A DNA stretch of 64,000 bases from Actinoallomurus iriomotensis (GTDB lineage Bacteria > Actinomycetota > Actinomycetes > Streptosporangiales > Streptosporangiaceae): assembly GCF_030269445.1 (NCBI RefSeq), contig NZ_BSTJ01000015.1, positions 132,649 to 196,648 of the forward strand. The letters are read 5' to 3'. Position numbers and translations under genes: made by a program. Positions within the stretch are counted from its first letter, which is position 1; every line of letters starts with the position of its first letter. Shown piece by piece: positions 47,607 through 63,226 of the stretch. The notes below the pieces were generated by a model that was given only the letters and a program-made list of their open reading frames with translations, did not search any database and was not told the DNA's origin.

Positions 47607-48686
47607 TTACTGTCCGAAACTCGCCCCGGCGCCGACAAGGCCGGCCACGAGTTCGCCCATTCTCCGGTCGGCCTGACTCACGCGCTTCTGGTTGACGGTC
47701 ACCCCGACGAGGTAGTCGCGGGGGCCGAGGCGGTAGTAGTAGACGGCGCCCTGTTCGACGTCCAGCACGATGCGCAGCATCCGGCCGCGAACCGCCTGCC
47801 GGGCGAGTTGGCTCAGCTGCCGGGTGAACGTGACGAACCCCTCGGCCGTGCGCCGGTAGAGCGTCCGCATCGCCGGAGGCGGCAGATGCGCCGGCCGCAG
47901 CGCGACGACCTGCTCGTGGTCGAGGAGGTCCGCCTCCGCGACGATGTCTCCCGACCGGCAGTGCGCGAGGTAGACGAGTTCGTCCGGTCTGAGCAGGTCG
48001 GGCAGCCGGCCACCCAGCGTGGACAGCGGCGAGCTCCGTCGCTGGACCGCGGATCGGAAGGTCTCGTCGTTCGCCGGTTCGTCCGCCGACGGCGCGTTCG
48101 CCGCCGGCATGGTGCTCTTCCAGCCGCCGGGGTTCTGGGACGGGATCCCGAGCCGGTCGCGGAGCCCGTCGACGATGCCGCTGACGAACACATCGGCGTC
48201 GCGGACGAGACCGACCTGCGGCAACACCCGGGCCGTCCGGCCCTTCACGGCGGCGGCGGCTCCGAAGACGATCGCCAGGACGTAGTTCTTCGGCGTGACC
48301 GACATGCAGAACATGGCCCCGCGCTCCGCGTGCAGCACCATGCGGATCAGCCGGCCCGTCTCGAGGTCGTTCAGCTGCTGGTCCAGGGCGGTCATCATGA
48401 AGGCGAGCTGCTGCCCGGCCGCCTGGTAGAAGTGGCGCCGGTCCGGCGACGCGTCGGAGCCGGCCGAGAAGAGCTCCCCGTCGTCGAGCACGTCCACGGC
48501 GAACTCATAGACGCCGTGGTCGTACTTGGCCAGGTAGTGCGGACCTCCCTGCCGGCATACGTAGTCGTGAAAAGTGCTGACCGTAACCTGCTCGATGCTG
48601 CGGCTGCCCGTCCATTCATGGACACTCGCACGAGTTGTGCGAAGCTCCCCCATTGCCGCCTCCTTCGAAAACCCGCTTTTCCCCAT
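47607..48686 (-). CDS. Tandem roadblock/LC7 (MglB-like) domain protein
   Basis: Two repeats of the roadblock pattern (RLIRMVLHAERGAMFCMSV..NYVLAIVF and RMLRIVLDVEQGAVYYYRL..DYLVGVTV) with a Pro/Ala linker. Its ATG shares one nucleotide with the STAND gene stop (TGATG). Confidence 0.5.
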   Translation of the reverse strand: MGKSGFSKEAAMGELRTTRASVHEWTGSRSIEQVTVSTFHDYVCRQGGPHYLAKYDHGVYEFAVDVLDDGELFSAGSDASPDRRHFYQAAGQQLAFMMTALDQQLNDLETGRLIRMVLHAERGAMFCMSVTPKNYVLAIVFGAAAAVKGRTARVLPQVGLVRDADVFVSGIVDGLRDRLGIPSQNPGGWKSTMPAANAPSADEPANDETFRSAVQRRSSPLSTLGGRLPDLLRPDELVYLAHCRSGDIVAEADLLDHEQVVALRPAHLPPPAMRTLYRRTAEGFVTFTRQLSQLARQAVRGRMLRIVLDVEQGAVYYYRLGPRDYLVGVTVNQKRVSQADRRMGELVAGLVGAGASFGQ

Positions 48687-51600
48687 CAGATGATTGGAAT
48701 GTCCACATAAATGGCGGAAGTAATGCTCGCTTCGGTCAGGCCCTCAGCCGTCTCGAGCGCCGCGGCGGCGACCTCGGTATAGGGGTGTTCGTCCCCCAGA
48801 TAGTCGAGCAGGTCCGCGGCGGTCGCCTCGTGCAGTCGCAGCGCCTCGTCGGCCCGGCCGAGACCCGTCAGCGCCCGTGCCTCGTGCAGCGCGGCCACCA
48901 TCGCCCACGGATGCTGCTCGCCGAGCGCGGCGACGAGCCGCTGTCTCGCCTCCCGCACCGTCGCGAGGGTGTTCTCGGGCGCCTCCATCGTGCCCTCGAA
49001 CAGGCCGAGGTCGAGCCGGCACAGCTGGACGAAGGGATGGCCGGGGCCGTACACGCCGACGAGGTCGTCGAGGAGCCGCCGGCCCAGCCGCGAGGCCCCC
49101 AGGTGATCGCCGGCCTCGTCGAGCTCGATCGCCAGGCTCAGCTCGGCGGCCAGGGTGCTGGGATGGCCGGCGCCCAGGACCGCGCGGAACCCGCGCACGG
49201 CCCTCCGGATCTTCTCGTCCGCGGCGTCCACCCCCCGCTGCCGGTCGACGATCGCGAGGCTCCTCAGCAGGTCCATCTCGCTGAGCCGGTCGGGCGTCTT
49301 CTGGTCACGCGCCTGGCCGAGGCTCATGACGAGCAGGCGCCGCGCCTCGTCCTTGCGCCCGTTCGCGAACTTGTAATCGCCGACCCGGCGGGCGATGCGC
49401 AACGCGATCGGGTCGGTCTCCCCGAACTCGGCCACCTGCTGCCGCCACGCGCGTACGGCCGTGTCCTCGGCGAGCTGGTGCTGTCCGGTGAGGAAGGCGG
49501 CCTCGGCGAGGTTGTTACGGGCGATGGTCGTGTCGCGGTGGCCGTCGCCGAGGAGCAGGCGGGTCTCCTCGTACACGCCCTCGATCTCGCCCAGCGCCTG
49601 GCCGAACTGTCCCAGGCCGCGCCGGTCTCCGGTGCGGCCGCGGCCCGCGGTCAGTGCCCAGTAGCGGCCCGCCGCGTCCGCTCCGCGCAGGATCGTCAGC
49701 GCCTGCTCGCTCGCCCGCAGGGCGTCGTCGAACCGGCCGAGGTCACGGCGGAGGTTGGCGACCTGGACGAGCAGGCGCCCCTTGAGCAGGTCGTCCGGCC
49801 AGGCCGGCAGCAGCTCCTCGACCATCGGGAGCATGAGGCTCCAGCTCCCCCGGTCGCCGGTGACGTACTGGAATCGCACCTGCTCGACGAGCCAGCGGCG
49901 AGCGTGGGCGTCGAGGCTCTCGGCGGCCCCGGACGGGCCCAGATGCCGGTGGAGCTCGGAGAACACCTCCCCGTGGAGGCTCACCGGGCCGTCGGCCTCG
50001 ACGGGCACGATGTCCGCGAGGGCGCCGATCGTCTGCCCCTGCCGCTCGGCCGCCTGCTCCGGGGAGAGGCGGTCCCGGATGAGCTCCTGCACCCTCCGGT
50101 GCAGCAGGATCCGCGGGTCGCGGCTCCACTGGACGTCGGCCAGGCCGAAGCGCACGCAGAGCCGCAGCAGCTGGTCCAGCACCATGCTGTCGGCGGCGAC
50201 GAGCTCGCCGGCCTCCGGACCGGCCGCGACGGCGAGCCGGTCGAGGAACGGCGCCGACGCCAAGAGCCGGTGGCTCGCGCCCTCGGGCGCGAGCCAGGCG
50301 CAGAGTTCGAGCAGCCGGGCCGCGAGGCACCCGAGCGGGCCGTCCTCCATCGACTCGAACGTCACGTCCAGGCAGGCCGCGGTCGGCTCCGTCCCGGGCG
50401 TCCTCATCCGCTGGGCGACGCGTGCCTTGAACTCCGCCACCGCCCACGCCGTCGCGCCGTCGGTGTCGAGCGCCCTGATGGCCAGCAGGTAGTCGACCGC
50501 CTCGCGGATCCACGCCGCCGCCAGCCTCAGCGCGAGCGGCAGGCCCTCGACGATGCCGACGACGGTCTCGGCGTGCTCGTCCGACAGCCCGTCGATCCGC
50601 TCGCGCAGGAAACGCCGTCCCGGGCCGGTGTCGACCGGCCCGAGGCGGTCGGCGGCGTCCCCGGCCGTACGGCTGGTGATGAGCACGTGGCCGGGACCGC
50701 CGGACGGGATGAGGTCCTCCAGCGCGGCCAGGTCGTCGGCGTCGTCGTAGACGAGCAGCCAGTTGTCCTGCCCGGAGGAGCGCAGCGCGGTGACGACGGC
50801 CGCCGCGGGGTCGCCCTCCGGGGCCACCCGCAGCCGCGCGGCCAGGGCGTTCAGGTCGAGCCGTGCGAGCTCCGGCGTGCGCGCCGAGACCCACCAGATG
50901 ATCCCGTAGTCCTCGCCGAAGGCCCGGATGTAGTGCTCGACCATGGCGGTCTTGCCGATGCCCGGCGGGCCGCCGAGGACGTGCGGCTCGCAGCCGTCGA
51001 CGTCGCGCATCAGCCGGTCGCGCAGCGCGGCCAGGTCTCCGTCGCGCCCGACGAACGGGCCGTCGTCGGGCAGGACGTGGTTGGCGACCGCGCCGTCCGG
51101 GGGCGGGTCGAGCGGATACGCGGGGACGAAGCCGACGGGCGGCGAGGGCAGGCCGCCGGCGACGAGGCCGAGCCGGCCTTGTAAGAGCCGGATCGCCTCG
51201 CGTTGCTCCCGGCCGGCGAGGTTCAGCGTGAGCGGCGTGTCCGGGAGCCGCTCGGCGACGTCGTCGGACACGCAGAGCACGAGGGCGGGGTCCGTGCCGT
51301 GCCGCGCGTCGGCGAGCGCCGGCAGCAGGTGGGCCGAGGCGATCACGACGACCCGGCCCGTGACCGGCTCGCCCTCCGCGGCCAGCGTGACGTCGGCGCC
51401 GAGGCCGCGCAGCTGCGCCTGGACCCAGTCGGCCCAGCGGCGGTCGGCCCGGTCGTGGACGACCGTGAACCGCTCGGTCTCGCGGGCTTCGTCCAGGCCG
51501 ACGGCGATGCGGTAGTTCGCCCGCAGCGCGGCCGGCAGCTCGGCGTGACCGGTGACGACGCCGCCGGAGAGCCGCTCGGTCAGCCGGCCGTACGCCCGCA

Positions 51601-52369
51601 CCACCTCGCTGTCCGGCTCCTCCGCCAGGGTCGCGAGGATGGAGCGGCCGGCCTGCCGGGACAGGAACGGGACGGTGAGGACCTCTTTGCCGGTGCCGGG
51701 CGGTGCCTCGAACAGCTGGGTGAGGAGGTCCGCGTCGACCTGGGCGATCTCCGGCCCGGTGGTGCGGGGACCGGCCCGCAGTGGCAGCAGGTCGATCCCG
51801 GCCGCGGCCTGCGCCTGGATCGCCTCGGCGAGGTTCGCCGCCTGAAGGGCGGCCAGGCGGCCCGGCCCGAAGGCCACGACGGCGACGTCGCTGCCCCGGG
51901 CGATGACGTCGATGATGTCGGCGTTCGGCTCGGTGGGCGCGTCGACGAGGATGTAGCCGTAGGGCAGGTCCTCCATCGCGTCGCGCAGCCGCTGGACGAT
52001 GACGTCGATCGGTTCCGCCCAGGGCAGCCCCGGCAGCGACTCACCTCGCCCGGGGCCGAGGGGCGTGACCAGGTCGACCGGGCCGGCGTCTCCGGGAGGC
52101 TGGAACCGTTCGGGCCGCCACGTGCCGGGGTCCTGTCCGGTCAGCCGGTCGAGGAGCGCGCCGAGCGCGGCGACCTCGGGCGGCTCACCGACGCTGAAGG
52201 GCTTGAAGTAGCCGCGATCGGTGGGGCGCTCGCCGCTCCAGTCGACGACGAGGACGCGCTCACGCGCTCCGGCCAGGATCATGGCGGTGTTCGCGACGGC
52301 CGCGGTGCGGCCGAGCCCCCGCGCCGCCGAGGTGAACGTCACGCACCGGGTCGAGCGACGGCCGGTCAC
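48686..52369 (-). CDS. STAND NTPase: degenerate ParA/MinD-like N-domain, TIR-like domain, NB-ARC, C-terminal TPR array (1227 aa)
   Basis: Deviant P-loop FTSAARGLGRT. TIR-like ERFTVVHDRADRRWADWVQAQLRGLGADVTLAAEG...VVVIASAHLL. NB-ARC: GGPPGIGKT, LLVYDDADD, HVLITSR, GLPLAL. More than 10 TPR-like repeats. GTG start overlapping the upstream small ORF (GTGA). Confidence 0.85.
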   Translation of the reverse strand: MTGRRSTRCVTFTSAARGLGRTAAVANTAMILAGARERVLVVDWSGERPTDRGYFKPFSVGEPPEVAALGALLDRLTGQDPGTWRPERFQPPGDAGPVDLVTPLGPGRGESLPGLPWAEPIDVIVQRLRDAMEDLPYGYILVDAPTEPNADIIDVIARGSDVAVVAFGPGRLAALQAANLAEAIQAQAAAGIDLLPLRAGPRTTGPEIAQVDADLLTQLFEAPPGTGKEVLTVPFLSRQAGRSILATLAEEPDSEVVRAYGRLTERLSGGVVTGHAELPAALRANYRIAVGLDEARETERFTVVHDRADRRWADWVQAQLRGLGADVTLAAEGEPVTGRVVVIASAHLLPALADARHGTDPALVLCVSDDVAERLPDTPLTLNLAGREQREAIRLLQGRLGLVAGGLPSPPVGFVPAYPLDPPPDGAVANHVLPDDGPFVGRDGDLAALRDRLMRDVDGCEPHVLGGPPGIGKTAMVEHYIRAFGEDYGIIWWVSARTPELARLDLNALAARLRVAPEGDPAAAVVTALRSSGQDNWLLVYDDADDLAALEDLIPSGGPGHVLITSRTAGDAADRLGPVDTGPGRRFLRERIDGLSDEHAETVVGIVEGLPLALRLAAAWIREAVDYLLAIRALDTDGATAWAVAEFKARVAQRMRTPGTEPTAACLDVTFESMEDGPLGCLAARLLELCAWLAPEGASHRLLASAPFLDRLAVAAGPEAGELVAADSMVLDQLLRLCVRFGLADVQWSRDPRILLHRRVQELIRDRLSPEQAAERQGQTIGALADIVPVEADGPVSLHGEVFSELHRHLGPSGAAESLDAHARRWLVEQVRFQYVTGDRGSWSLMLPMVEELLPAWPDDLLKGRLLVQVANLRRDLGRFDDALRASEQALTILRGADAAGRYWALTAGRGRTGDRRGLGQFGQALGEIEGVYEETRLLLGDGHRDTTIARNNLAEAAFLTGQHQLAEDTAVRAWRQQVAEFGETDPIALRIARRVGDYKFANGRKDEARRLLVMSLGQARDQKTPDRLSEMDLLRSLAIVDRQRGVDAADEKIRRAVRGFRAVLGAGHPSTLAAELSLAIELDEAGDHLGASRLGRRLLDDLVGVYGPGHPFVQLCRLDLGLFEGTMEAPENTLATVREARQRLVAALGEQHPWAMVAALHEARALTGLGRADEALRLHEATAADLLDYLGDEHPYTEVAAAALETAEGLTEASITSAIYVDIPII

Positions 52370-52584
52370 GCCGTGCCGCCTGCCCTCGTGCCGCGCTCCG
52401 TCCGGCGCGAGCCTTCGAGGACCGTGTCATTGATGAAACTGGCGTATCCCGGCGTGCCCTCGTCGCCCTCGCGGCGTCTCCGGGTCAGCGCCCAGCCCAT
52501 GACCGACTCGTCCTGTTGTAGGTCCGGAGCCTCCAGATCGACCCCCGAGAGGTCCACCAGAGCCGGCTGCCCGTTTCCCCGCAT
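52366..52584 (-). CDS. Candidate small peptide (72 aa); possible RiPP precursor of the adjacent rSAM/SPASM enzyme
   Basis: GGTGGAGG RBS. Acidic, Leu-rich leader-like N-terminus ALVDLSGVDLEAPDLQQDESV. GYASFINDT aromatic-x-Asn motif. In-frame TAG 10 codons upstream of the ATG. Sits between the STAND gene and the divergent rSAM gene. Confidence 0.35.
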   Translation of the reverse strand: MRGNGQPALVDLSGVDLEAPDLQQDESVMGWALTRRRREGDEGTPGYASFINDTVLEGSRRTERGTRAGGTA

Positions 52585-52615
52585 GCCTCCACCGCCCGCG
52601 CCCAGAACCGACTTC

Positions 52616-52666
52616 TATAATAGACACCGCTTTTTACATGGTCCCCCACTAAAGTGGTTTGTAAAG
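52616..52666. promoter_or_regulatory. Divergent promoter with consensus -10 TATAAT and nested inverted repeats TTTACA..CCACT-aa-AGTGG..TGTAAA
   Basis: acttcTATAATagacaccgcttTTTACAtggtcccCCACTaaAGTGGttTGTAAAg. This AT-rich island lies between the peptide/STAND operon and the rSAM gene. Confidence 0.4.
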
Positions 52667-52714
52667 CGTCACTCGACACTATCGACCCCCTAGACCCGGC
52701 GTAGGCTCCGGTTC

Positions 52715-53905
52715 ATGATCAACGGACTTATTGGCCGCAATCGGCCGATCAAGAAGCCGACCCCCTTCCGTCAGTTCATTCTCAAGGTGCACAGTCGGTG
52801 CAATCTCGCCTGCACCTACTGCTATCTGTACACGATGGCCGATCAGCGCTGGCGGCATCGGCCACCCGTCATGTCCGCCCGAATCGCGGACTTAGCCGCG
52901 GCCCGGATCGCCGAGCACGTGCGGTCGCACGACCTGACCGACATCGCGGTCGTCCTGCACGGCGGAGAACCGCTCCTGGCCGGCCCCGATCGGCTTCGCC
53001 ACGTCGTGACGGCCGTGCGCGGCGCGGTGGGCGACGCCGCGACGGTCGACTTCTCCCTCCAGAGCAACGGGACCCTGCTCGACCGCCGCTTCCTGACCCT
53101 GTTCGACGAGCTGGGGATCCGCGTCGGAGTCAGCCTGGACGGCGACGCGGCCGCCCACGACCGCGCCCGGCGCAGGCCGCGAGGCGGCAGTCACGCCCAG
53201 GTCACGCGAGGGCTGGACGCGCTGACGGGCCCGGAGTTCGGTCACCTGTTCTCCGGGCTGCTGTGCGTCATCGACCTGGCCAACGACCCGATCGCGACCT
53301 ACGAGGCGCTGCTGGCCTTCTCGCCGCCCGCGATCGACCTGCTGCTGCCGCACGCCAACTGGAGCAACCCGCCGGCCGGACCGGCGGGCGCGTACGCGGC
53401 CTGGCTGATCCCCATCTTCGACCGCTGGTTCCACGCACCGGTGCGCGAGACGCGGATCCGGCTGTTCGAGGAGATCATCAATGTGCTTCTCGGCGGCGCG
53501 TCGGCCGTCGAGGGGATCGGGACGAGCCCCGCCGCGATGATCGTCGTGGAGACCGACGGGCAGATCGAGCAGTCGGATATCCTCGCCGCGGCTTTCGACG
53601 GCGCCGCGTACCTCGGCCTGGACGTCGGCGATGACGATTTCGATGCCGCGCTCCGACATCCTGCCACCATCGCCCGCCAATTAGGCATGACCGGAATACC
53701 CGGGGAGTGCCGCGAGTGCCGCTGGGCGGCCGTATGCGCGGGCGGACATTATTCCCATCGTTATCAGGACCAAAAAGGGTTCGACCATCGTTCGGTTTAC
53801 TGTGCCGACCTTTTCGCGTTGTTCGACCACATCCGTACGGCACTGGTCGCCGCACTCGCGGCGCGCGCCGCCGCCTCCCCTCCGGCGCTGACCGTCATCC
53901 CGTAG
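52715..53905 (+). CDS. Radical SAM / SPASM-domain enzyme (FxsB-like peptide maturase)
   Basis: CNLACTYCY (CxxxCxxC) and a C-terminal SPASM Cys cluster (GECRECRWAAVCAGGHY...VYCAD). 396 aa. Confidence 0.85.
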   Translation: MINGLIGRNRPIKKPTPFRQFILKVHSRCNLACTYCYLYTMADQRWRHRPPVMSARIADLAAARIAEHVRSHDLTDIAVVLHGGEPLLAGPDRLRHVVTAVRGAVGDAATVDFSLQSNGTLLDRRFLTLFDELGIRVGVSLDGDAAAHDRARRRPRGGSHAQVTRGLDALTGPEFGHLFSGLLCVIDLANDPIATYEALLAFSPPAIDLLLPHANWSNPPAGPAGAYAAWLIPIFDRWFHAPVRETRIRLFEEIINVLLGGASAVEGIGTSPAAMIVVETDGQIEQSDILAAAFDGAAYLGLDVGDDDFDAALRHPATIARQLGMTGIPGECRECRWAAVCAGGHYSHRYQDQKGFDHRSVYCADLFALFDHIRTALVAALAARAAASPPALTVIP

Positions 53906-56900
53906 GCGGACGGTCGGACCGGCCGGTGCGGGCGATGGCGGTCTCCACTCCGGCGATCCGGTCGGCGAGCAGGCCGAGGGCGCCGACCGCCCGGCTCATC
54001 GGGTCGTCCTCCTCGCCGCCCAGCGCCCGGGCCCGTACGAACGCCGCCTTCACCTCCGCCCAGCGCTCGCTCTGCTCGGCGGTCAGCGTGCCGCGCAGCT
54101 CGCCGAGTTTCAGCAGGTTCGCCTCGGCTCCGGAGGCCAGCGTCTGCGCCTCGCCGAGGTAGTGGTCGTCGACGACCGCCTCCAGCTCCGCGTCGTTCAT
54201 CGCCGGCACGATGCGTTCGGCCAGCTTGTTCATGTTCCGGTAGGAGCCCTGCAGCTGGAACGGCGGCTCGGTCCGCGACGCGTCGTTCTGCGCCGCCGAG
54301 GCGATGTAGGCCCGGTTGCACGCGAGCACCACCCGCTGCACCCTCAGCAGCTTGCGCAGCACGGCGGTGATCTGCTCGACCTCGGTCGCGGAGTACGGGT
54401 GGACGAGCCGGTCGGGCATCGCCGTGGAGTCGCCGCGCGCGAGGCGTACGAACAGCTCGACGTCGGCGCGGTCGCGGGTGGACAGCGGGGCGAGCACGGG
54501 GTTGGAGGTCAGGGCGTTCTCCACGTAGCTGAGCGCGAACAGCTCCTCGCGCCCGGACAGCACGTCGCCGAGGTTCCACACGTCGGCGCGGTTGGCCAGC
54601 ATGTCCGGGACGCGGAACCGCCGGCCCGACTCGGTGAACGGGTTGCCCGCCATGCACACCGCGAACCGCTTGCCGCGCAGGTCGTACGTGCGGGTGCGGC
54701 CCTCCCAGACGCCCTCGATGCGGCGCTGGGCGTCGCACAGCGAGATGAACCGCTGCAGCAGCTCCGGCGACGTGTGCTGGATGTCGTCGAGGTAGAGCAG
54801 CACGTTGTTGCCCATCTCCAGCGCGAAGGAGATCTTCTCGACCTCCTGGCGCGCGGTGGCGTTCGGCGCCTCGGCCGGGTCCAGCGAGGTGACCGACTGG
54901 CCGAGCGCCGGCCCGTTGATCTTGACGAACATCAGGCCGAGCCGCCCCGCGACGTACTCCATCAGCGTCGTCTTGCCGTACCCGGGCGGTGAGATGAGCA
55001 TCAGCAGGCCCATCTGGTCGGTGCGCTTGGCGTCGCCCGCCGCGCCGAGCTGCTTGGCCAGGTTGTCGCCGATCAGCGGCAGGTAGACCTCGTCCAGCAG
55101 GGCGTTGCGCACGAACCCGCTCATCACCTTCGGCCGGTACTCCTCCAACCGCAGCCGCGACCGCTCGGCCGCGACCAGCTCCCCGCGTCGCTTCTGGTAC
55201 GCCCGGTAGGCGGGCACGCGTTCGGCGCGGAACCGGCGGGTACGGGTCAGCACCTCATCGAGGCGGAGTTCCAGCCGCCGGCCGGTGACGCGCGGGTGCG
55301 TGCCGAGCAGGCCCTCGACGGTCGCGGTCAGCGGCGCGGAGGACTCATAGCGCGGCAGCGGCCCGCACAGCTCGATCGCCACCGCCTCGGCCAGATCGCC
55401 GGCGGGCGAGGCGTCCGACGCCACGTACGCGCTCAGCCAGGCCTCGACGAGCTGCCGCCGTGCCGCCAGGTCGTCGCCCAGATCGCGCAGGTCGGCCTCG
55501 AACCCCGGATCGCCGCCGAGCGCCCGCCGGAACCCGTCCAGGAGGGCGCGGGCGCCCGCGCCGGTGACGAAGCCCTCCGGCGCGGCGGCCAGCTCCTCGA
55601 ACAGGTACTCCCCCGCGAGGTCGTGCGGCCCGGCGTCGAGGGCGGAGGCCGCGATGGCCGCGGTCAGTTCGGCGCGCAGCCCCGCGACCGCCGCCGCGTC
55701 GCCGAACGCGGCACGCGCGCGGGCGAGGGACCGGGCCCGCGCGGCCCAGGACGTACGGTCCTCCTTCGCGGCGCCGTGCGCCCAGAACAGCTGGGCGGCC
55801 GCACGCGCGGCCGGTGGGTAGCGCAGCAGCCCGGCGTCGTCGTGCAGCCGCAGCAGCGCCGCCACGATCAGAGCGGCGTCGCGGTCGTGGACGCCGCGTT
55901 CGTAGCCCTCGTCGTACCGGGTCTCGGCGGCGCGCCGCACCTCGGCGAACAGGCCGTCGGCGGACTCGGCCGCGCGCCGCAGCGCGCCGAGCGAGGGGCC
56001 GGTGAGCAGGTCCGCGGCGAGGTACTCGGCGCGGTAGACCTCAGGCGTCTCGGAGACCAGCGACTGGTCCCAGTACGGCCGGGTCGCCGCGAAGTCCGGG
56101 TCGCGCACCGGCTGCCGGTAGTCGGTCGCGGTCACCGCGTACGCCAGGCCGCCCTCGTACGGCACGAGGGTCAGGTCGAGGGGCTGGGTGTTGACCGCGA
56201 ACCGGTGCCGGCCGAGGCGGATCGCCTGCCCGCCGCCCTCGTACAGGTCGACGCGGTCGCGCAGGACCCGGCCGGCGTCCTGCCGGGCGGCCTTGAGCCG
56301 TCCGGCGAGTTCCTCCGCGCGCACCGCGTCGCCGAGGTCCCGCAGTTGATCGGCGACGCCGCGGACCTTGGCCACCATCGGGTCGGCGGCGAAGTAGGTG
56401 TTGATCTCGTCGAGGGAGTCCAGTTCGGCGACGCGCCGCTGGATCCCGGTCAGGACGCGTTCGGCCGACTCGGCGAGCCGGTCCGCCCGCCGTACCTGCT
56501 CGTCGACGAGTGCCTGCTTGCGCGTGGAGAACGCCTCGTAGACCTCCTCGCGCCGGGCGGACAGCCGCGCGACGAAGTCGTCGAACTCGGCGAACCGCGA
56601 CTCCAGGTTCTCCAGCTGGAGCATCATGCGGCCGAGCTGGTCGTCGCAGTGCGCGGGAGAGTCGGCCATCGCCAGGGCCGCGGTCACGGCCTGGCCGAGC
56701 AGCGCGAACTCCGCCGCGAACGCGGCCCGGCCCTCAGCGTCGAGCAGTTCGCGGCGGCGGGCGGTCAGGCTCGCCTGAGCCTGGTTGATCTCGGCGAGCG
56801 CCTCGCCGATCCGCTCCAGGATGGAGGTGCGGACGCGGGCGTCGGCGACGTCGAGCGATCCGACGACCTCGGTGAGCGTCTCCAGGCCGTGGGTCTGCTC

Positions 56901-58781
56901 GGCGAGCCGTTCCCGTACGGGATCGGCCTCGGCCGCGGTCGCGATCGCCTCGGCGTCGGCGGCGATCCGGCCGATCCGCTCGTGGTAGCCGGTGAAGGCG
57001 TCCGGCCCCTGGAGGAACGCCACGGCGCGACCGCCCGTCGCGGTGAGTTCGTCGCCGAGCCGCCCGGCCAGCGCGTCGATCCCCGCCGTGTCCGCGTACC
57101 GCATCTCGCGCAGCGTCTCGAGCCGCCCCTGCGAGCGGCGCAGCTCGGCGAGCCGGCTCACCCACGCGTCGGCGGTGGCCGGCGACTCGCCTCTCGTCTG
57201 CCGGATCAGGGTGGTGATCCGCTCCTCGGCCTCGGCGAGCGCGCCGGACGCCTGCGCGGTGAGCCGCTGGACGTTCTCGTACTCCTCCAGGACCTGCTCG
57301 GCGGCGGCGCGCACACCGTCGAGCGGCTCGCGCAGGCCCTGCTCGCCGAACCAGAAGTAGCGGTCCGCGGCCCGGTCACAGGCCGCGATCAACGCCTCGA
57401 GCACCGCCTCCGACGGCTCGCTCTCGGCCACCGTACGGGCGATCGAGAGGGCGTCGGAGATGCCGCGGACCAGGTCGGCGTTGCCGACGCGCTCCAGCGG
57501 CCCGGTGCCGACCGGCTGCGCCGCCGCGTACGTGTCCGACACGTAGGGGGTCTGCCACACCTGCATCTGGTGCACCCGGGTGGGCTCGGCCGAGTCGGCG
57601 CGGAACGAGACCAGCGTGCCGTCGTCGAACAGCGAGTAGCCGTGGCACGTGATCGGGGTGGCGACCTCCTTGCGGATCACGTTGTACGGCAGCAGGAGGT
57701 ACCGGCCGGCCTCGCGGGCGTGGAAGACGTAGAGCGCGTCCTCGCCGTTCGGGGACCGGATGACGCGCTCGTACTCCAGCCGGTCGGTCTCGGTGTCGAA
57801 GGTCTTGGCCGTCCCGGTGACCAGGTAGTAGCCGCCGGGGAAGATGATCCCCTGGTCCTCCGGGAGCCGGCGGCACGCCTGGCCGATGCCGTCGAGCCGT
57901 ACGACGGACCGGGTGCGGGTGTTGAAGACCAGGTGCCGCCGGTCCTCCTCCTTGTACGGCCGCACGCGCAGCAGGATCAGCGCGCCGACGCGGGCGTACT
58001 CCACCTCGGCGTCGGCGAGGCTCTGCAGCGGCTCGGCGACCGGCTCGCGGTAGACGCCCTCCCCGGTCTCGGTGTTGTTCTCCAGCTTGACGGTCAGGTC
58101 GCCCCCGACGGTCTCGACGAAGATCTCGTCCTCGATCGAGATGTGGGGGTGCCGGCCCAGGACGTGGTCGTCGCGGGTCGTCTCGGTCCAGGTGAAGTCG
58201 TGCGACGGCGGGAAGACGTGGTCCGGCTCGCCCAGGTTGTCCTGGTAGACGACGGTGCCGTCCGTCCCGGTCTTCCATCGGAGCACGCGGGTGTCGTGCT
58301 CGGCCTCCAGGCCGGTCTGGAAGACGGCCAGGAGCTTGCCCTCGACGTGGCGGAGCTGGAGCAGCCGGCTGTCGCGGTAGTAGCGGTACAGCTCCGTGAA
58401 GTCGCGTTCGAACTGCGGGTCGCGCAGCAGGTCCGACTCGGCGGCCTCGAACCGGAACTTCTCGCCGTCCCGGACGAACCGGTGCACCGCGAACACGTCG
58501 TCCACCGACGTCTCCGGGCGGAGCCCGATGAACACGTTGTACCCGAACAGCAGCAGCTCGCCGACGGCGGCGATGTCGCGGGGCACGCAGTTGTTCTCGG
58601 TGCGGATCCGCTCGGCGCCGACGAGCCGCAGCTCGGCGCCGCCGAAGGTCTCCACGCGCCGGGCGTTCAGCGTCTCGGCCCGGCCCGCCAGCGCTTCGGC
58701 CTGCTCGCCGAGCCGGGCGCGGAGCACCTCGTAGGTGCCCGCGTCCAGCTTCGGCTCAGGCTTCTCCTCTCCTACCGTCAC
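53895..58781 (-). CDS. Giant 1628-aa protein: N-terminal beta-rich region, approximately 700-aa coiled-coil/helical middle, C-terminal MoxR/dynein-like AAA+ domain
   Basis: Start set to the GTG (VTVGEEKPE) that overlaps the flotillin stop (GTGA); the 72-aa Arg-rich ORF extension was rejected. AAA domain: LISPPGYGKTTLMEYV, Walker B VLLYLDDIQH, MoxR-like AGNPFTESGRRFRVPDMLANRAD. Confidence 0.7.
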   Translation of the reverse strand: MTVGEEKPEPKLDAGTYEVLRARLGEQAEALAGRAETLNARRVETFGGAELRLVGAERIRTENNCVPRDIAAVGELLLFGYNVFIGLRPETSVDDVFAVHRFVRDGEKFRFEAAESDLLRDPQFERDFTELYRYYRDSRLLQLRHVEGKLLAVFQTGLEAEHDTRVLRWKTGTDGTVVYQDNLGEPDHVFPPSHDFTWTETTRDDHVLGRHPHISIEDEIFVETVGGDLTVKLENNTETGEGVYREPVAEPLQSLADAEVEYARVGALILLRVRPYKEEDRRHLVFNTRTRSVVRLDGIGQACRRLPEDQGIIFPGGYYLVTGTAKTFDTETDRLEYERVIRSPNGEDALYVFHAREAGRYLLLPYNVIRKEVATPITCHGYSLFDDGTLVSFRADSAEPTRVHQMQVWQTPYVSDTYAAAQPVGTGPLERVGNADLVRGISDALSIARTVAESEPSEAVLEALIAACDRAADRYFWFGEQGLREPLDGVRAAAEQVLEEYENVQRLTAQASGALAEAEERITTLIRQTRGESPATADAWVSRLAELRRSQGRLETLREMRYADTAGIDALAGRLGDELTATGGRAVAFLQGPDAFTGYHERIGRIAADAEAIATAAEADPVRERLAEQTHGLETLTEVVGSLDVADARVRTSILERIGEALAEINQAQASLTARRRELLDAEGRAAFAAEFALLGQAVTAALAMADSPAHCDDQLGRMMLQLENLESRFAEFDDFVARLSARREEVYEAFSTRKQALVDEQVRRADRLAESAERVLTGIQRRVAELDSLDEINTYFAADPMVAKVRGVADQLRDLGDAVRAEELAGRLKAARQDAGRVLRDRVDLYEGGGQAIRLGRHRFAVNTQPLDLTLVPYEGGLAYAVTATDYRQPVRDPDFAATRPYWDQSLVSETPEVYRAEYLAADLLTGPSLGALRRAAESADGLFAEVRRAAETRYDEGYERGVHDRDAALIVAALLRLHDDAGLLRYPPAARAAAQLFWAHGAAKEDRTSWAARARSLARARAAFGDAAAVAGLRAELTAAIAASALDAGPHDLAGEYLFEELAAAPEGFVTGAGARALLDGFRRALGGDPGFEADLRDLGDDLAARRQLVEAWLSAYVASDASPAGDLAEAVAIELCGPLPRYESSAPLTATVEGLLGTHPRVTGRRLELRLDEVLTRTRRFRAERVPAYRAYQKRRGELVAAERSRLRLEEYRPKVMSGFVRNALLDEVYLPLIGDNLAKQLGAAGDAKRTDQMGLLMLISPPGYGKTTLMEYVAGRLGLMFVKINGPALGQSVTSLDPAEAPNATARQEVEKISFALEMGNNVLLYLDDIQHTSPELLQRFISLCDAQRRIEGVWEGRTRTYDLRGKRFAVCMAGNPFTESGRRFRVPDMLANRADVWNLGDVLSGREELFALSYVENALTSNPVLAPLSTRDRADVELFVRLARGDSTAMPDRLVHPYSATEVEQITAVLRKLLRVQRVVLACNRAYIASAAQNDASRTEPPFQLQGSYRNMNKLAERIVPAMNDAELEAVVDDHYLGEAQTLASGAEANLLKLGELRGTLTAEQSERWAEVKAAFVRARALGGEEDDPMSRAVGALGLLADRIAGVETAIARTGRSDRPPTG

Positions 58782-60784
58782 TGGTCGATGACGGCGACGG
58801 AGGAGACGGCGGCGTCGGCGACACCGAGGCGTTCGGCGTGGTCGAGCAGTTCCTGCGCCTTGGCGCCGTCCGACCCGCCGCCCCGGATCCGCTGCATGAG
58901 CAGGGCGGACAGGGTGAGGTTCTTCACGTCGTCCGTGCTGACCGAGCCGAGCAGCCGGGTGAGGTCCTCGGGGAAGCTGCGGTCGCCGTTCAGCCACGGC
59001 CCGGCGAGGCCGCGCGCCACGCCGGAGTGCTCGACGAACCCGTCCATGCTCTTGCCGACGCCGATCGCGCCGACGACCTTGTCGAAGAACGTGCTCTCGC
59101 CGCCGACGATGTCGATGTCGGCCTTCTCCAACGCGGACGCCAGTACCGTCGCCTGCTCGCCGGCGACCTCCCGCTGGACGTCCAGGCCGGCCAGGCGGAT
59201 CTCCTTCTCCGCCTCCAGCCGCAGGCGGTACTCCTCGTGCCCCCGCGTCGCGTCGTCCATCGCGGCCATGCCGGCGGCCTTGTCGGTGAGGCCCTCCGCC
59301 TCGGCCTTGAGCTTCTCGCGGATGCCGTCGGCGGCGGCGAGGGCCTTCTGCCGGTCGACGGCGGCCTCGGCGTTGCCGACCTTCTCGATGGCCTCGGCGT
59401 CCCGCTCGCGCACCTGCACCTCGGCCAGGCCCTCCGCCGCGGCCTCGGCCTGGACGCCCTCGGCCAGCCGGATCTTGGCCTGCGCGTCGAGCTCGGCGGT
59501 CTTCTGCCGCGCCTCGGCGAGCAGCAGCTCCTGGCGGGCCTGGAACTTGGCCGCCTCCTCGGCGGCCTCGGCCGCCTTGATGCCCTTGACGAGGTTCTCC
59601 TGCGCCTCCGCCTCGGCCTGGATGACCAGGGCCTGGCGCGTGCGCTCGGCCTCCTCGACGACGCGGAGCTTCTTGATGTTCTCCTCCTGCTCGGCGACCG
59701 TCTTCTCCACCGCGATGCGCTCGCGGATGACGTCGGCGATCTCCCGCTTCTCCGCCTCGACCTCCTTGTCCTTGGCGATCCGGGACAGCTCGGTCTCGCG
59801 CTCGCGGGCGATCACCTCGAGCAGGCGGTCCTTCTCGATGCGCTCGCTCTCCACCGCGATGACGCGTTCGCGGTTCTTCTCCGCGACGGCGATCTCCCGG
59901 TTGCGGTTCTCCTGCTGGATGCCGAGCTGCTCGTCGGTACGGATGTGCGCGCTCTGGGAGGTCAGCCGCTCCTCGGCCTGCACCTTGGCGATCTCGGCCT
60001 CCTCGCGGGCCCGGACCGTCTCGATCTCGCGCTTCTTCTTGACCTCGGCCTCGGCCTGCCGGCGTTCGAGCTCGAGGATCGCCTCACGCGCGTCGACGTT
60101 CTGCCGCGTGATCTCCTTCTGCTCGTTGCGCTGGTACTCGTTGGTGCGCACGTGCTCGATCGCGGTCAGCTCGGTGATCTTGCGGATGCCCTGCGCGTCG
60201 AGGATGTTCGTCGGGTTGAGGCTGTCCAGCGGCGTCTGCTCGAGGTGGTCGATGGCCGCGTCCTCGAGGTGGTAGCCGTTCAGGTCGGTGCCGATGATCT
60301 GCACGATCTGGTCGCGGAACTCGTGCCGGTGGGTGTACAGGTCGACGAAGTCCATCTGCTTGCCGACGGTCTTCAGCGCCTCGGAGAACTTGGCGTTGAA
60401 CAGCGTCTGGAGCGTCTCCTCGTGGCTGGCGCGCGCCGTGCCGATGGCCTGGGCGACCTGGATGACGTCCTCGACGGTCTTGTTGACCCGGACGAAGAAC
60501 GTGATGCGGATGTCGGCGCGGATGTTGTCCCGGCAGATCAGGCCCTCGGCGCCCGAACGCTCGATCTCGATGGTCTTCACCGAGATGTCCATCACCTCGG
60601 CCTTGTGCAGGATCGGCAGCACGATCGCGCCGGTGAACGTGACGTGCACCTTCTTGATCTTCGAAACGATCAGCACGCGCCCCTGCTCCACCTTGCGGAA
60701 CAGCCGGAGCATCACGATGACACCGGCGAGCACGAGCAGAATCGCGGCGACCAGCACGCCGAGCCCGACGAACAGCGAATCCAT
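58778..60784 (-). CDS. Flotillin (SPFH/band-7 domain + long Ala/Glu-rich coiled coil), YqiK/FloT-like
   Basis: N-terminal TM helix, SPFH domain (RVLIVSKIKKVHVTFTGAIVLPI...), approximately 300-aa EA-rich coiled coil, 668 aa. Confidence 0.9.
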   Translation of the reverse strand: MDSLFVGLGVLVAAILLVLAGVIVMLRLFRKVEQGRVLIVSKIKKVHVTFTGAIVLPILHKAEVMDISVKTIEIERSGAEGLICRDNIRADIRITFFVRVNKTVEDVIQVAQAIGTARASHEETLQTLFNAKFSEALKTVGKQMDFVDLYTHRHEFRDQIVQIIGTDLNGYHLEDAAIDHLEQTPLDSLNPTNILDAQGIRKITELTAIEHVRTNEYQRNEQKEITRQNVDAREAILELERRQAEAEVKKKREIETVRAREEAEIAKVQAEERLTSQSAHIRTDEQLGIQQENRNREIAVAEKNRERVIAVESERIEKDRLLEVIARERETELSRIAKDKEVEAEKREIADVIRERIAVEKTVAEQEENIKKLRVVEEAERTRQALVIQAEAEAQENLVKGIKAAEAAEEAAKFQARQELLLAEARQKTAELDAQAKIRLAEGVQAEAAAEGLAEVQVRERDAEAIEKVGNAEAAVDRQKALAAADGIREKLKAEAEGLTDKAAGMAAMDDATRGHEEYRLRLEAEKEIRLAGLDVQREVAGEQATVLASALEKADIDIVGGESTFFDKVVGAIGVGKSMDGFVEHSGVARGLAGPWLNGDRSFPEDLTRLLGSVSTDDVKNLTLSALLMQRIRGGGSDGAKAQELLDHAERLGVADAAVSSVAVIDQ

Positions 60785-60817
60785 CAGTGGTCCTTCATCG
60801 CGGGAGTGAGAATTGAA

Positions 60818-61396
60818 TCAGCGAGGTGAACGGTGGGGGTCGAGCTCCGCGTCATACGGCATCACCCAGAAGAACTCGCCCTCGGCGTCGTAGTCGAAGA
60901 TCAGTGCGGTACTACCTGCTTTGAGGGCGGGTTCGTCGTCCCGGTTCCGCTGTTGCCGCACCTGAATGACGGCGGCCGAGCCGTCGGCGGCGCGCACGAC
61001 GGCCTGACCGAAACGGAGATCCACCCGGCCGGTGCTGATCACGCACATCCGGCCGACGAAGTCACGCCGGGTGGGCACCGCCTCTTCGGCGATCATGCGC
61101 CGCAGCGGTCGCATCAGCAGGCGGGTGAGCAGGGCGGACAGCAGCACGGAGCCGACCAGCACGCCGGTGGACGGCAACACGCCCGACACGTCGCCCCGGC
61201 GCAGCAGCACGGCTCCGGCCAGGCACGCGAACCAGGCGACCGCCACGAACAACGACACCAGAACGGCTACGGCGGCGCCGGCCAGCGCGTCCAGCGCCCC
61301 GCACGCGACCAGCGCCCAGTAGGCGAGCACCACGAGGAGGAAAAGGCCCGGAACGACCGCCGGAAAATCCAATGCCACCCGTAGGAATTCCGTCAT
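60818..61396 (-). CDS. NfeD-like membrane protein (short form, YuaF/YqiJ type) partnering the flotillin
   Basis: Trimmed to MTEFLRV, which has GGGGGAGG 10 nt upstream. Three TM helices, then a C-terminal OB-fold-like domain. Confidence 0.75.
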   Translation of the reverse strand: MTEFLRVALDFPAVVPGLFLLVVLAYWALVACGALDALAGAAVAVLVSLFVAVAWFACLAGAVLLRRGDVSGVLPSTGVLVGSVLLSALLTRLLMRPLRRMIAEEAVPTRRDFVGRMCVISTGRVDLRFGQAVVRAADGSAAVIQVRQQRNRDDEPALKAGSTALIFDYDAEGEFFWVMPYDAELDPHRSPR

Positions 61397-61546
61397 CTCT
61401 CGCGCCTCCCCCGGCATGCCTGTCGTTGTTGCCGACCAGGCTTCCCGGCGCTCCGAAGCGGAACTCTACGCCTTAAAAAGGCCGTGGAAATGTGATCTAT
61501 GCAACATGGGACGAGCGGAACCGGATCTTCGGAAAGACTCGGGTCG

Positions 61547-62035
61547 TCAGGCGTCCCAGGGGACCGAGGCGCTGGTCCAATGGGTGAGGCCGGCGAGGTC
61601 CGCCTCGGTGGTGACGTGGCGCGGCGGGGTGGCGAACGTCGCGTACGGGCGCAGGCGCAGCACGACCCGTTCCTCCCGCCGGGCCATCTCCTCGACCTCG
61701 GCGCGGGAGTCCTCGCTCAGCGGACGGCCCGCCATGACGCCCATGATCTTGAAGAACAGGTCGGCGCCGGCCTGCGGGTCGTCGTCCACGACCGCGTCGC
61801 AGTAGACGTTGAGGTAGGTCGGCGGCCACTTCTCGTCCAGGACGCACAGCGAGACCTTCGGGTCGCGGCGCACCGCCGCGGCCTTCGCCCGCGCCCGCAT
61901 GGTGGAGACGAGGATCTCGTCGCCCTCCACGACGTAGTACAGCGCCGACATCGCGGGTCCGTCGTTCTTGCGGGAGTAGCCGAAGATCGCCGTACGGTGG
62001 TCACGGACGAACCTGCGTCGCTCTTCCGGTGTCAT
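61547..62035 (-). CDS. PPOX-class (pyridoxamine-5'-phosphate-oxidase-like) probable F420-dependent enzyme
   Basis: Trimmed to MTPEERRRFVRDHRTAIFGYSRKNDGPAMSALYYVVEGDEILVS, a split-barrel fold signature. Confidence 0.7.
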   Translation of the reverse strand: MTPEERRRFVRDHRTAIFGYSRKNDGPAMSALYYVVEGDEILVSTMRARAKAAAVRRDPKVSLCVLDEKWPPTYLNVYCDAVVDDDPQAGADLFFKIMGVMAGRPLSEDSRAEVEEMARREERVVLRLRPYATFATPPRHVTTEADLAGLTHWTSASVPWDA

Positions 62036-62164
62036 GTCCTCCAGTCTGCGCCACCTGCTCCAGGCGTCCCAGGGCATCGCGTACTCCGCGGAATGCGTTG
62101 AGCGACGCGACGGCACGCCGTACGCTCATTGATCACCGGCTAATCCGGCAGTGGGGAAACCACC

Positions 62165-63226
62165 ATGGGACTGACGGTCTCCGATGTGATCACGTCCGCG
62201 CCGAGCACGTGGGGTGCCGCGAACGCGGCGAGTGCCGCCATCGTCTACCCGCTCGCCGCCTTCGTCGCGGTGCCGCTCGCCACGGTCGTGTCGGATCCCG
62301 CGCAGATGTGGCACGCGGGCCAGCGGTACGGCGAGGTCGCCGACCGCCTCCGGACGGCGAGTTCGGAGGTCTCGCAGGCCGTGGAACGGCACGCCTCCGC
62401 GGACCACTGGAAGGAGAAGGGCAAGGACGCCTTCATCGCCAACCGGGTCAAGCCCTACCAGGACACCCTCGGCGCGGCCGCGGACATGTACGACAACGTA
62501 CGGGACACGCTCTGGGGCTGCGCGGTCGGCTACACGGTGGCGGGCATGGCGTCGGCGGTCATCGGGTCCGCGCTCCTCAACTTCGTGGCGGCCAAGCTCG
62601 CCGCCGCGGTCGTGCCCGCGGTGGACGTCGCCGCGGAGTACGTGGCGAACAGGTTGATGGTCCAGGCCGCTCAGACGGTCCGGGTGCTGATCAAGGGCCT
62701 GGCCGCGATCAATGGCGTGGCCATTAAGATCATCGGCGACGTCTCCAGCGTGAAGCTGCTCCTCGCGACCGGGGCCGGCTCGCTGATGAGCGGCACCTAC
62801 ATCGGCGCCGCGGCGGCGCCGAGTTTCGAGAGCACCCAGACCACGCTCACCTGGCCCCGGCGGCTGGCGTCCGGCGAGGCCGTGCCCGCCGGCTACCACG
62901 CCCCCAGCGCGGCCGACGAGAACGCGATCAGGAACATCGAGCCCGCGTCGCTCACCGCGCTGAGCAAGGATCTGGACCGCAACGCCGCCAAGACGCTCGC
63001 CGGCGCGTACGACCACGCGCAGGGGAACGACGTGGGCTACCCCGGCTTCGGCCTGGTCGGTCTCCACCTGGCGCACGCGCACAGCGTCATGCGCGAGCAC
63101 GCCGCACAGCAGCTCGCGGCCTGCCGCGACGAACCGGGAACGTGGCTGCCGGGGCTGCGGTCGAACTCCGGCGTCTGGGTCTGCGCCGACCAGGCGAGCG
63201 CGGACGCCGCCAAGCACGTCAAGTGA
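62165..63226 (+). CDS. Hypothetical protein with a hydrophobic/helical N-terminal half, function unknown
   Basis: 353 aa, balanced composition, several amphipathic or TM-like segments. No motif recognised. Confidence 0.45.
   Translation: MGLTVSDVITSAPSTWGAANAASAAIVYPLAAFVAVPLATVVSDPAQMWHAGQRYGEVADRLRTASSEVSQAVERHASADHWKEKGKDAFIANRVKPYQDTLGAAADMYDNVRDTLWGCAVGYTVAGMASAVIGSALLNFVAAKLAAAVVPAVDVAAEYVANRLMVQAAQTVRVLIKGLAAINGVAIKIIGDVSSVKLLLATGAGSLMSGTYIGAAAAPSFESTQTTLTWPRRLASGEAVPAGYHAPSAADENAIRNIEPASLTALSKDLDRNAAKTLAGAYDHAQGNDVGYPGFGLVGLHLAHAHSVMREHAAQQLAACRDEPGTWLPGLRSNSGVWVCADQASADAAKHVK

Follow-up and report, generated by a model that had tools for sequence, protein, structure and literature searches.

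The three adjacent genes considered here lie in a 64,000-nucleotide stretch of the Actinoallomurus iriomotensis genome (contig NZ_BSTJ01000015.1, positions 132,649 to 196,648; hereafter the window) and encode a small membrane protein, a flotillin-family protein and a giant cytoplasmic AAA+ ATPase. The window is high-GC actinomycete DNA, in which the three co-directional open reading frames (ORFs) span positions 53895-61417 of the minus strand. Their products of 192, 668 and 1628 amino acids (aa) are exactly the consecutive NCBI proteins GLY80670.1, GLY80669.1 and GLY80668.1 of A. iriomotensis (order Streptosporangiales), labeled "hypothetical protein", "flotillin family protein" and "DNA repair ATPase", respectively. 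The first of these has the UniRef label "DUF1449 family protein", and the giant protein is also recorded as WP_285633906.1. A preliminary description, made from the DNA sequence alone, had proposed an NfeD-flotillin operon extended by a giant ATPase gene, and its coordinates and gene models proved correct.

The gene for the giant protein (53895..58781, minus strand) is one uninterrupted ORF that begins with GTG, and a check for a frameshift found none. Its start overlaps the flotillin stop in ccaGTGAcgg, as read directly from the sequence: in the GTGA at 58778..58781 (minus strand) the flotillin TGA and the giant start codon have two bases in common, as the preliminary description had stated. 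We place the start at this GTG because G15, Y17 and E18 hardly vary among the phyla and there is no alternative start codon from residue 1 to residue 15; on the 5' side of the GTG, the ORF is Arg/Pro-rich, out-of-frame noise over the 3' end of the flotillin gene. The GC content at the third codon position is 0.96 in the giant gene and 0.98 in the flotillin gene, which identifies both frames as the coding ones. An antisense ORF of 1659 aa (55296..60275, plus strand) was considered and rejected as a gene. It is a high-GC shadow, with a GC content of 0.79/0.56/0.83 by codon position, and the genes on the other strand have full homology support. A promoter and terminator scan of positions 53400-62200 gave nothing exceeding the shuffled expectation.

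The flotillin-family (YqiK-type, SPFH2) gene occupies 58778..60784 of the minus strand, and its product is 100% identical to the A. iriomotensis protein of that name. Since the sequence itself has no Pfam match, its identity rests on profile comparison. A profile of 16 family members was aligned with E. coli YqiK at an hhalign probability of 99.9% (E 7e-34, 393 columns, 29% identity); Band_7 (PF01145) is matched by four of the 16 relatives, with a best value of 5e-9, and the NCBIfam model FloT gives a weak match (3.8e-5). The SPFH domain, detectable via the family profile, is accompanied by a single N-terminal hydrophobic transmembrane anchor (residues 8-26, score 3.12) and by an E/A-rich coiled coil, which had been noticed at first reading (residues 220-520 contain 20% Glu and 19% Ala), with a conserved C-terminal region after it. 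An NfeD2-like gene lies upstream, as in most related loci. Searches of the PDB sequences with the flotillin and with its family profile found no solved relative.

The upstream gene, separated from the flotillin gene by a 33-nucleotide gap, encodes a small membrane protein of the YqiJ/YuaF type (NfeD2, DUF1449; 60818..61396, minus strand). Translation most likely starts at the second Met, M8 of the 199-aa ORF, which would give the 192-aa product: the ATG at 61396 has GGGGGAGG just 5' of it and coincides with the conserved start in the alignment of homologs. In the numbering of the 199-aa ORF, three transmembrane helices are predicted at 21-39, 48-66 and 79-97, followed by a β-rich soluble C-terminal domain. 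This protein, too, is assigned by profile comparison, since its own sequence has no Pfam match. The family profile was aligned with E. coli YqiJ at an hhalign probability of 75% (E 2.5e-5), YqiJ_N was found in two of 16 relatives (5e-5) and NfeD (PF01957) in one of 16 (0.0066), and the homolog from a Puniceicoccaceae locus has a weak YqiJ_N match. The putative C-terminal OB-fold (NfeD) domain is covered by the YqiJ alignment, at that probability and E-value only, and a search of the PDB sequences with the family profile found nothing. As judged from these matches to YqiJ and YqiK, which agree with the NfeD-flotillin pairing of the preliminary description, the two proteins form a predicted SPFH2-NfeD2 pair of the kind defined by Hinderhofer et al. 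2009 (PMC2636767).

The giant protein was initially divided into a β-rich N-terminus, a helical middle and an AAA module, and both Pfam and structural models uphold this architecture; the N-terminal region, then called unassigned, is in fact the Pfam domain DUF3686 (PF12458; residues 31-476, 57354..58691 of the minus strand, E 1e-214). Pfam further finds DUF7902 (PF25472) at residues 594-678 (56748-57002, minus strand, E 4e-28) and both AAA and AAA_5 at about residues 1260-1383. The protein has no predicted transmembrane segment. Its family has more than 6,488 homologs, with about 70% identity (60-70%) across actinomycete orders; it forms 765 clusters at 50% identity, nearly all of 1,600-1,900 aa with an N-terminal DUF3686. 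An AlphaFold model of residues 1-500, built from a 65-sequence alignment, reached a predicted local distance difference score (pLDDT) of 92.3 and a predicted TM-score (pTM) of 0.90. In it, a long N-terminal helix is followed by about 26 strands, which make up about seven four-stranded units, and by a helical bundle extending to about residue 499 (blade counts, as well as the AAA+ inserts considered below, were taken from the secondary-structure strings of the models). The top Foldseek matches of this model in the PDB were all β-propellers, namely DCAF1, WDR5, CyRPA, sialidases and PON1 (E 4e-7 to 6e-5), and the modeled DUF3686 head appears propeller-like, if non-canonical. In three family members (P0449, P0451 and P0457, of which P0457 comes from one of the distant loci described below) an N-terminal PilZ domain (PF07238, weak precomputed matches) is fused to this head, which hints that the ATPase of these lineages is under the control of c-di-GMP.

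The helical middle of the giant protein (residues 477-1240, 55062..57353 of the minus strand) was delimited by Pfam, by a second model starting at residue 840 and by conserved motifs of the alignment. Residues 500-839 are probably helical and coiled-coil, judging from their composition and DUF7902. The model of residues 840-1628 (pLDDT 90.5, pTM 0.83) comprises, in order, a small β unit, an all-α domain (about 850-1200), a long connecting helix, the α/β core of the AAA+ domain, a lid and a helical C-terminal extension. The latter region (residues 1406-1628, 53898..54566, minus strand), which was recognized by its modeled secondary structure and invariant residues, carries the motif EPPFxLQGSYRNMNK and the invariant residues R1503, P1506, Q1511, G1512, S1513, Y1514 and R1515. 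Sequence searches of the PDB with the giant protein and its family profile returned P-loop matches or nothing, and no solved relative.

The AAA+ core (residues 1250-1405, 54567..55034, minus strand) is delineated by Pfam, invariant motifs, the model and Foldseek. It has a Walker A motif SPPGYGKTT (GYGKT at residue 1267, with K1270), a Walker B motif LYLDD (LYLDDIQH at 1329, with D1332 and D1333), thus DD and not DE, a sensor 1 with N1380 in GNP, where AGNPFTESGRRFRVPDMLANRAD starts at residue 1378, and a putative Arg finger, R1398, in ANRAD. K1270, D1332, D1333, N1380 and R1398, together with the AAA+ motifs, are invariant in 18 diverse sequences and in the set of 65, so the GYGKT, the DD of Walker B and the motif NP...R emphasized in the preliminary description are features of the whole family. 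In the model, a β-hairpin (residues 1354-1367) precedes sensor 1 and only a loop occupies the position of the helix-2 insert. AAA_5, at 24.8-27.7 bits against a cut-off of 22 and over profile positions 2-125 of 139, is the sole specific Pfam model matched over almost its full length, slightly above threshold; the generic AAA model gives a partial match of 30.3 bits, and AAA_3, which represents MoxR proper, has no match on the giant protein. Foldseek searches with the AAA+ model gave NorQ (2.6e-5), RuvB (3.9e-5) and CbbQ2 (6.2e-5), with spastin alongside, at about 13-17% identity. No partner with a VWA domain was found among the neighbors in seven annotated loci or in the window module. The class label "MoxR/dynein-like" given at first reading is therefore reasonable but unproven and only loosely supported: the AAA_5 match just over its threshold and the NorQ/CbbQ folds speak for it, and the equal rank of RuvB in Foldseek and the lack of an AAA_3 match and of a VWA partner speak against it.

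The genomic association of this protein with flotillin was examined in both directions. A scan with the giant protein, one genome being taken per species, detected at least 583 genomes, and the best-scoring 80 loci, mostly from actinomycetes, were kept. Of these, 77 had enough upstream DNA, and in all 77 a co-directional flotillin gene immediately precedes the giant gene; they take in Myxococcus, Corallococcus and metagenome-assembled genomes (MAGs) labeled Deltaproteobacteria, Clostridia and Proteobacteria. The same flotillin precedes the giant gene (hidden Markov model E 1e-162 to 1e-299) in all seven distant loci, where the giant protein is 30-40% identical (Gilliamella, Mangrovivirga, Stratiformator, Aliikangiella, a Puniceicoccaceae MAG, Hymenobacter and a PilZ-fused variant); the NfeD-like gene is present there as well, wherever the contig allows. 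Thus the search for orthologs standing apart from flotillin, suggested as a refuting test in the preliminary description, did not refute the link: a flotillin was found in each of the 84 assessable loci, which belong to Actinomycetota, Myxococcota, Bacteroidota, Planctomycetota, Gammaproteobacteria and Verrucomicrobiota. Conversely, a metagenome scan with the flotillin profile yielded 67 loci with at least 600 nucleotides downstream. The giant gene starts within 800 nucleotides in 59 of them and follows an inserted YhcG-nuclease gene in another two (61/67 in total).

The third gene of the module is less constant. Some Streptomyces (five loci) retain only the transmembrane part of the NfeD/YqiJ-like protein, without the C-terminal β domain, and in about a dozen others no such gene was detectable by tblastn and HMM searches, which are imperfect for a short, divergent protein. 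In these Streptomyces, flotillin and the giant gene stay adjacent. The invariant core pair across at least six phyla is therefore flotillin and the ATPase, not the classical flotillin and NfeD. The module has no constant surroundings: none of the genes that flank it in the window (a gene for an FxsB-type enzyme, two unassigned ORFs, a PPOX oxidoreductase gene and a 363-aa ORF) is conserved in 83 related loci, and the flanks are not kept even in other Actinoallomurus species. We conclude that the three genes are a self-contained unit that travels together and that there is no fourth partner in actinomycetes. In three complete or near-complete chromosomes, two from Streptomyces and one from Actinokineospora, the genes lie mid-chromosome.

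The four-nucleotide overlap between the flotillin stop and the giant start (GTGA, ATGA or TTGA) recurs in 18 other non-Streptomyces actinomycete loci, whereas Streptomyces and the other phyla have no overlap and a gap of about 40-230 nucleotides. The co-translation proposed in the preliminary description is therefore plausible for the window and these actinomycetes and does not extend to the rest; as far as can be judged from the spacing, translational coupling of the giant gene to flotillin would be a lineage feature rather than a family feature.

An operon of this kind has already been described computationally. Ravi, Anantharaman, Aravind, Gennaro et al. (mSystems 2024, PMC11237479) reported a CesT/Tir-PspA-YqiJ/YuaF-flotillin-AAA+ operon, proposed sub-membrane assembly and remodeling roles for it, and noted that the abbreviated operons, which lack PspA, occur more widely and may act with PspA encoded elsewhere. 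Hence the link between flotillin and the giant protein, for which the preliminary description knew of no characterized precedent, had been published. The window resembles this operon in the co-directional arrangement of a YqiJ/YuaF transmembrane protein, a band-7/flotillin protein and a β-propeller/coiled-coil/AAA+ protein, and differs from it in having neither a CesT-PspA dyad nor an HTH-S24 regulator, which makes it the abbreviated form. Upstream of the module, the window has an F420/PPOX-class oxidoreductase gene in place of the CesT/Tir-PspA dyad, and tblastn of the window and the loci with the CesT and DUF2170 proteins of Gilliamella and Mangrovivirga found nothing, these being distant queries and a PspA encoded elsewhere being possible. 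The fuller form was observed in three of our distant loci: Gilliamella, Mangrovivirga and Hymenobacter, from Gammaproteobacteria and Bacteroidota, carry a CesT/DUF2170 gene and a PspA_IM30 gene immediately before the module, and in the Puniceicoccaceae locus a PspA gene is 3.5 kb off. The supplementary example of Ravi et al. (PMC11237479), Dokdonia donghaensis, has the same layout as that found here in Mangrovivirga and Hymenobacter.

The treatment of the operon by Ravi et al. is one paragraph of context analysis, with no structure, linkage statistics, DUF3686 assignment or experiment. The window copy is an ordinary, intact member of this known but uncharacterized operon family. What is new here is the DUF3686 assignment, the confident domain models, the two-way linkage statistics and the recognition of flotillin and the ATPase as the invariant pair, along with the lineage variants (loss of the NfeD-like gene, zinc-ribbon insertion and PilZ fusion) and the grounds to doubt the database name.

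Several lineages show further elaborations of the module. A divergent gene for a LexA-like regulator (HTH_3 and Peptidase_S24) stands beside the operon in two Bacteroidota, Mangrovivirga (L082, 2976-3752, minus strand) and Hymenobacter (L088, 1176-1979, minus strand), which suggests cleavage-controlled, SOS-like regulation; the Dokdonia example of Ravi et al. shows the same "cHTH+protease". In a metagenomic clade, the flotillin and ATPase genes are separated by another gene, whose Cys-rich product (about 176-187 aa) contains a Zn_ribbon_TFIIB domain (PF13453, up to 33.8 bits). This inserted gene was read directly in eight loci and deduced in five more from their equal spacing of 690-780 nucleotides. 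We had considered this spacing as an N-terminal PilZ extension of the giant protein, a possibility that was rejected, as the gap encodes a separate protein (about 185 aa) with a zinc ribbon. According to Ravi et al. (PMC11237479), the PspA/band-7 operons of Firmicutes have zinc-ribbon partners as well. In two loci of this clade a gene for a YhcG-type PDDEXK nuclease (DUF1016_N and YhcG_C, E 1e-45), probably a selfish insertion, lies between the zinc-ribbon and giant genes (L146, 3912-4979; L150, 8777-9844). Other additions are a rhomboid protease gene upstream of the module in Aliikangiella (L085, 4750-5286), genes for small membrane proteins with bPH_4 and DUF3592 interleaved in the module of Hymenobacter (L088, 4635-5042 and 7578-7955), and SocA_Panacea and HNH genes near two distant loci (L081 and L083).

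The neighbors of the module in the window are of other kinds. Convergent with the giant gene, and overlapping its 3' end by 11 nucleotides (53895-53905), is a gene at 52715-53905 of the plus strand for a cyclophane-forming radical SAM/SPASM peptide maturase of the FxsB family (TIGR04269, 433.6 bits; cut-off 370). Two ORFs without Pfam or NCBIfam family, 48635-51184 (849 aa) and 51203-52693 (496 aa), precede it on the plus strand, and the three genes may be a cluster for a ribosomally synthesized and post-translationally modified peptide (fxs-type). Directly upstream of the module, at 61547-62116 of the minus strand, is the gene for the F420-dependent PPOX-class oxidoreductase (Pfam PNPOx_N; TIGR03618 E 9e-21, slightly under its cut-off), and beyond it lies the 363-aa ORF, which has no family.

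The two upstream genes of the module have well-known counterparts. The gene pairs yqiJ-yqiK of E. coli and yuaF-floT of B. subtilis, classified as SPFH2-NfeD2 (Hinderhofer et al. 2009, PMC2636767), have the same composition and order as in the window; in E. coli, however, yqiK is followed by sibD/ibsD and nothing resembling the giant gene, and the flotillin of the window, at 668 aa, exceeds YqiK (553 aa) by about 115 aa. The operon of Shewanella SO1377 (YqiK), for which a knock-out study exists, likewise has two genes and no ATPase.

What the ATPase may add to such a pair is best approached through systems that combine a membrane scaffold with an AAA+ machine, and its closest functional precedents would be HflK/C-FtsH and ESCRT-III-Vps4. 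In HflK/C-FtsH, an SPFH cage encloses a hexameric AAA+ ATPase at the cytoplasmic membrane, and this tie of an SPFH scaffold to an AAA+ machine is the best precedent for the action proposed below. FtsH, however, is a membrane-anchored AAA protease of the classical clade, whereas the giant protein belongs to another AAA+ lineage, has neither a transmembrane segment nor a protease domain, and adds a propeller as well as a long stalk that is helical and probably coiled-coil; its interaction with flotillin is a predicted one only. ESCRT-III/Vps4 is similar in that an AAA+ ATPase remodels a membrane-bound polymer, and the operon of some lineages includes a gene for PspA, a relative of ESCRT-III; at that, the giant protein has no MIT domain and no Vps4-type AAA, the window module has no PspA, and the constant partner is flotillin.

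By analogy with these systems, we suggest that the giant protein is an ATP-driven remodeler of flotillin scaffolds or of their clients in membrane stress or maintenance, a reading to which we attach about even weight. It builds on the domain architecture and invariant catalytic residues of the giant protein, on its lack of a transmembrane segment, and on the constant flotillin neighbor and the recurring PspA genes. Like other SPFH proteins, flotillin would build an oligomeric scaffold or cage, together with its NfeD-like partner, on the cytoplasmic side of the membrane. The giant protein might oligomerize via its AAA+ ring, with the stalk and propeller head contacting the scaffold or the proteins held within it, and ATP hydrolysis would power the assembly, disassembly or remodeling of the scaffold or its clients. 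This activity may belong to a membrane-stress or maintenance response, into which PspA would also be recruited in some lineages. In the lineage of the window, the GTGA overlap would couple translation of the ATPase to that of flotillin. A narrower version, in which flotillin itself is the substrate and the giant protein is a dedicated, Vps4-like machine for the ATP-driven assembly or disassembly of flotillin scaffolds from actinomycetes to planctomycetes, coupled to PspA in some lineages, is tentative, and we consider it possible rather than probable.

A number of observations weigh against the proposed remodeling role. The AAA+ module matches solved structures weakly, with a target-normalized Foldseek TM-score of about 0.55, and its sequence similarity to solved proteins is confined to the P-loop; the propeller matches of the head have TM-scores of only 0.25-0.38. 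As suggested by the DD form of Walker B, hydrolysis could be slow or regulatory. In the reverse scan, six of the 67 flotillin loci have no giant gene within 2.7-6 kb and yet keep the full C-terminal region of flotillin, indicating that flotillin can work without the giant protein or that the latter can be encoded elsewhere. A tblastn search with two distant PspA queries, which is a weak test, detected no PspA gene beside the module, be it in the window or in other actinomycetes of the set. The linkage figures derive from the best 80 of at least 583 genome loci, with actinomycetes prevailing, and from a small sample of seven distant ones. Finally, the physical interaction, the oligomeric state and the ATPase activity of the giant protein are inferred, and our literature search found no paper on DUF3686 (PF12458) and none with an experiment on the giant ATPase. 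Separately, we had considered the extra C-terminal region of flotillin as a docking site for the giant protein, an idea that found no support, as the six loci without the giant gene retain this region (their alignments reach residue 639-655 of 668).

The most serious alternative to flotillin-scaffold remodeling is a client-directed chaperone of the NorQ/CbbQ/MoxR type, which would mature a membrane complex, load a cofactor into it or extract it, with flotillin being the platform and not the substrate. NorQ and CbbQ2, MoxR-class remodelers of specific enzyme clients, are among the best fold matches, the AAA_5 match exceeds its threshold, and β-propellers often serve as protein-binding platforms. 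With NorQ/CbbQ (MoxR-class, AAA_5) the giant protein has in common a similar sensor-1 "NP" and, in the model, the β-hairpin before sensor 1; moreover, its NP...E.G...P....NR motif presumably corresponds to the sensor-1 and Arg-finger region of MoxR, which we take it to resemble. On the other hand, NorQ and CbbQ are stand-alone ATPases of about 260 aa that have VWA partners (NorD and CbbO), whereas the giant protein has a 1240-aa N-terminal extension, a DD Walker B and about 13% identity to them. The usual co-factor of MoxR proteins, a VWA protein, is not seen in the annotated neighborhoods, and no client gene is conserved in the flanks. AAA_3 is unmatched, and RuvB and spastin score about the same as NorQ. 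Such a chaperone thus seems to us doubtful, somewhat more so than the flotillin-specific machine.

A structural role is improbable. In that case the stalk and propeller would tether flotillin domains to the cytoskeleton, the divisome or polar organelles, and the AAA+ ring would be a hub or a nucleotide switch and not a motor. This would accord with the non-canonical DD Walker B, with the very long helical region between the head and the ATPase, and with the frequency of the family in bacteria of complex morphology, among them actinomycetes, myxobacteria and planctomycetes. However, residues related to ATP binding and hydrolysis are invariant over the sampled phyla, a pattern that would argue for catalysis, and the family also occurs in simple rods, for example Gilliamella.

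Even less probable is an anti-phage or conflict system, in which flotillin and the NfeD-like protein would sense the membrane perturbation caused by infection and the giant ATPase would be the effector scaffold; a defense-type effector scaffold was one of the possibilities named in the preliminary description. Large STAND/AAA proteins with propellers are common in defense systems, the module moves as a unit amid unrelated flanks, and some of its neighbors are mobile or defense-like (SocA_Panacea, HNH and the YhcG nuclease). The defense suggestion is nevertheless not borne out. PADLOC gave only sub-threshold matches, the best at E 0.0026 to the ZorA coiled coil, and nothing for the other two proteins; the module has no effector domain such as a nuclease, protease or TIR; the 60-70% identity across actinomycete orders and the mid-chromosome sites are unlike patchy, fast-evolving defense genes; and the recurrent link is to the PspA membrane-stress genes.

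The least likely possibility, a very remote one, is that the protein acts in DNA repair and adjoins flotillin incidentally: beyond the database name itself ("ATPase involved in DNA repair", PF12458), it is favored by a weak RuvB_N similarity at the P-loop, the presence of RuvB among the fold matches and the LexA-like HTH and Peptidase_S24 gene divergently upstream of the operon in two Bacteroidota, and it is opposed by the absence of a detectable DNA-binding, nuclease or SMC/ABC head domain, by the extent of the RuvB similarity (about 45 residues round the P-loop, 19 bits versus family cut-offs of 282-299), by the invariant adjacency to a membrane-protein gene in 84 of 84 loci, and by the literature, where no paper supporting the name was found. 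The name "DNA repair ATPase", carried by WP_285633906.1 and about 6,500 homologs, appears unsupported and probably propagates from the title of PF12458.

The role of flotillins in bacteria is debated, and no dedicated energy-consuming partner of theirs has been characterized. The giant protein, with its high conservation across orders and thousands of homologs, ranks among the best-conserved large actinomycete proteins of unknown function, and tractable hosts for its study exist in Streptomyces and Myxococcus. If flotillin itself proves to be the substrate, the module would represent an uncharacterized energy-dependent cycle for membrane microdomains, and the head formed by DUF3686 would be a flotillin-binding domain of a new kind, propeller-like yet non-canonical. 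If, more generally, the ATPase remodels flotillin or PspA assemblies, it would offer a handle on how bacteria build membrane microdomains, turn them over and use them in membrane repair.

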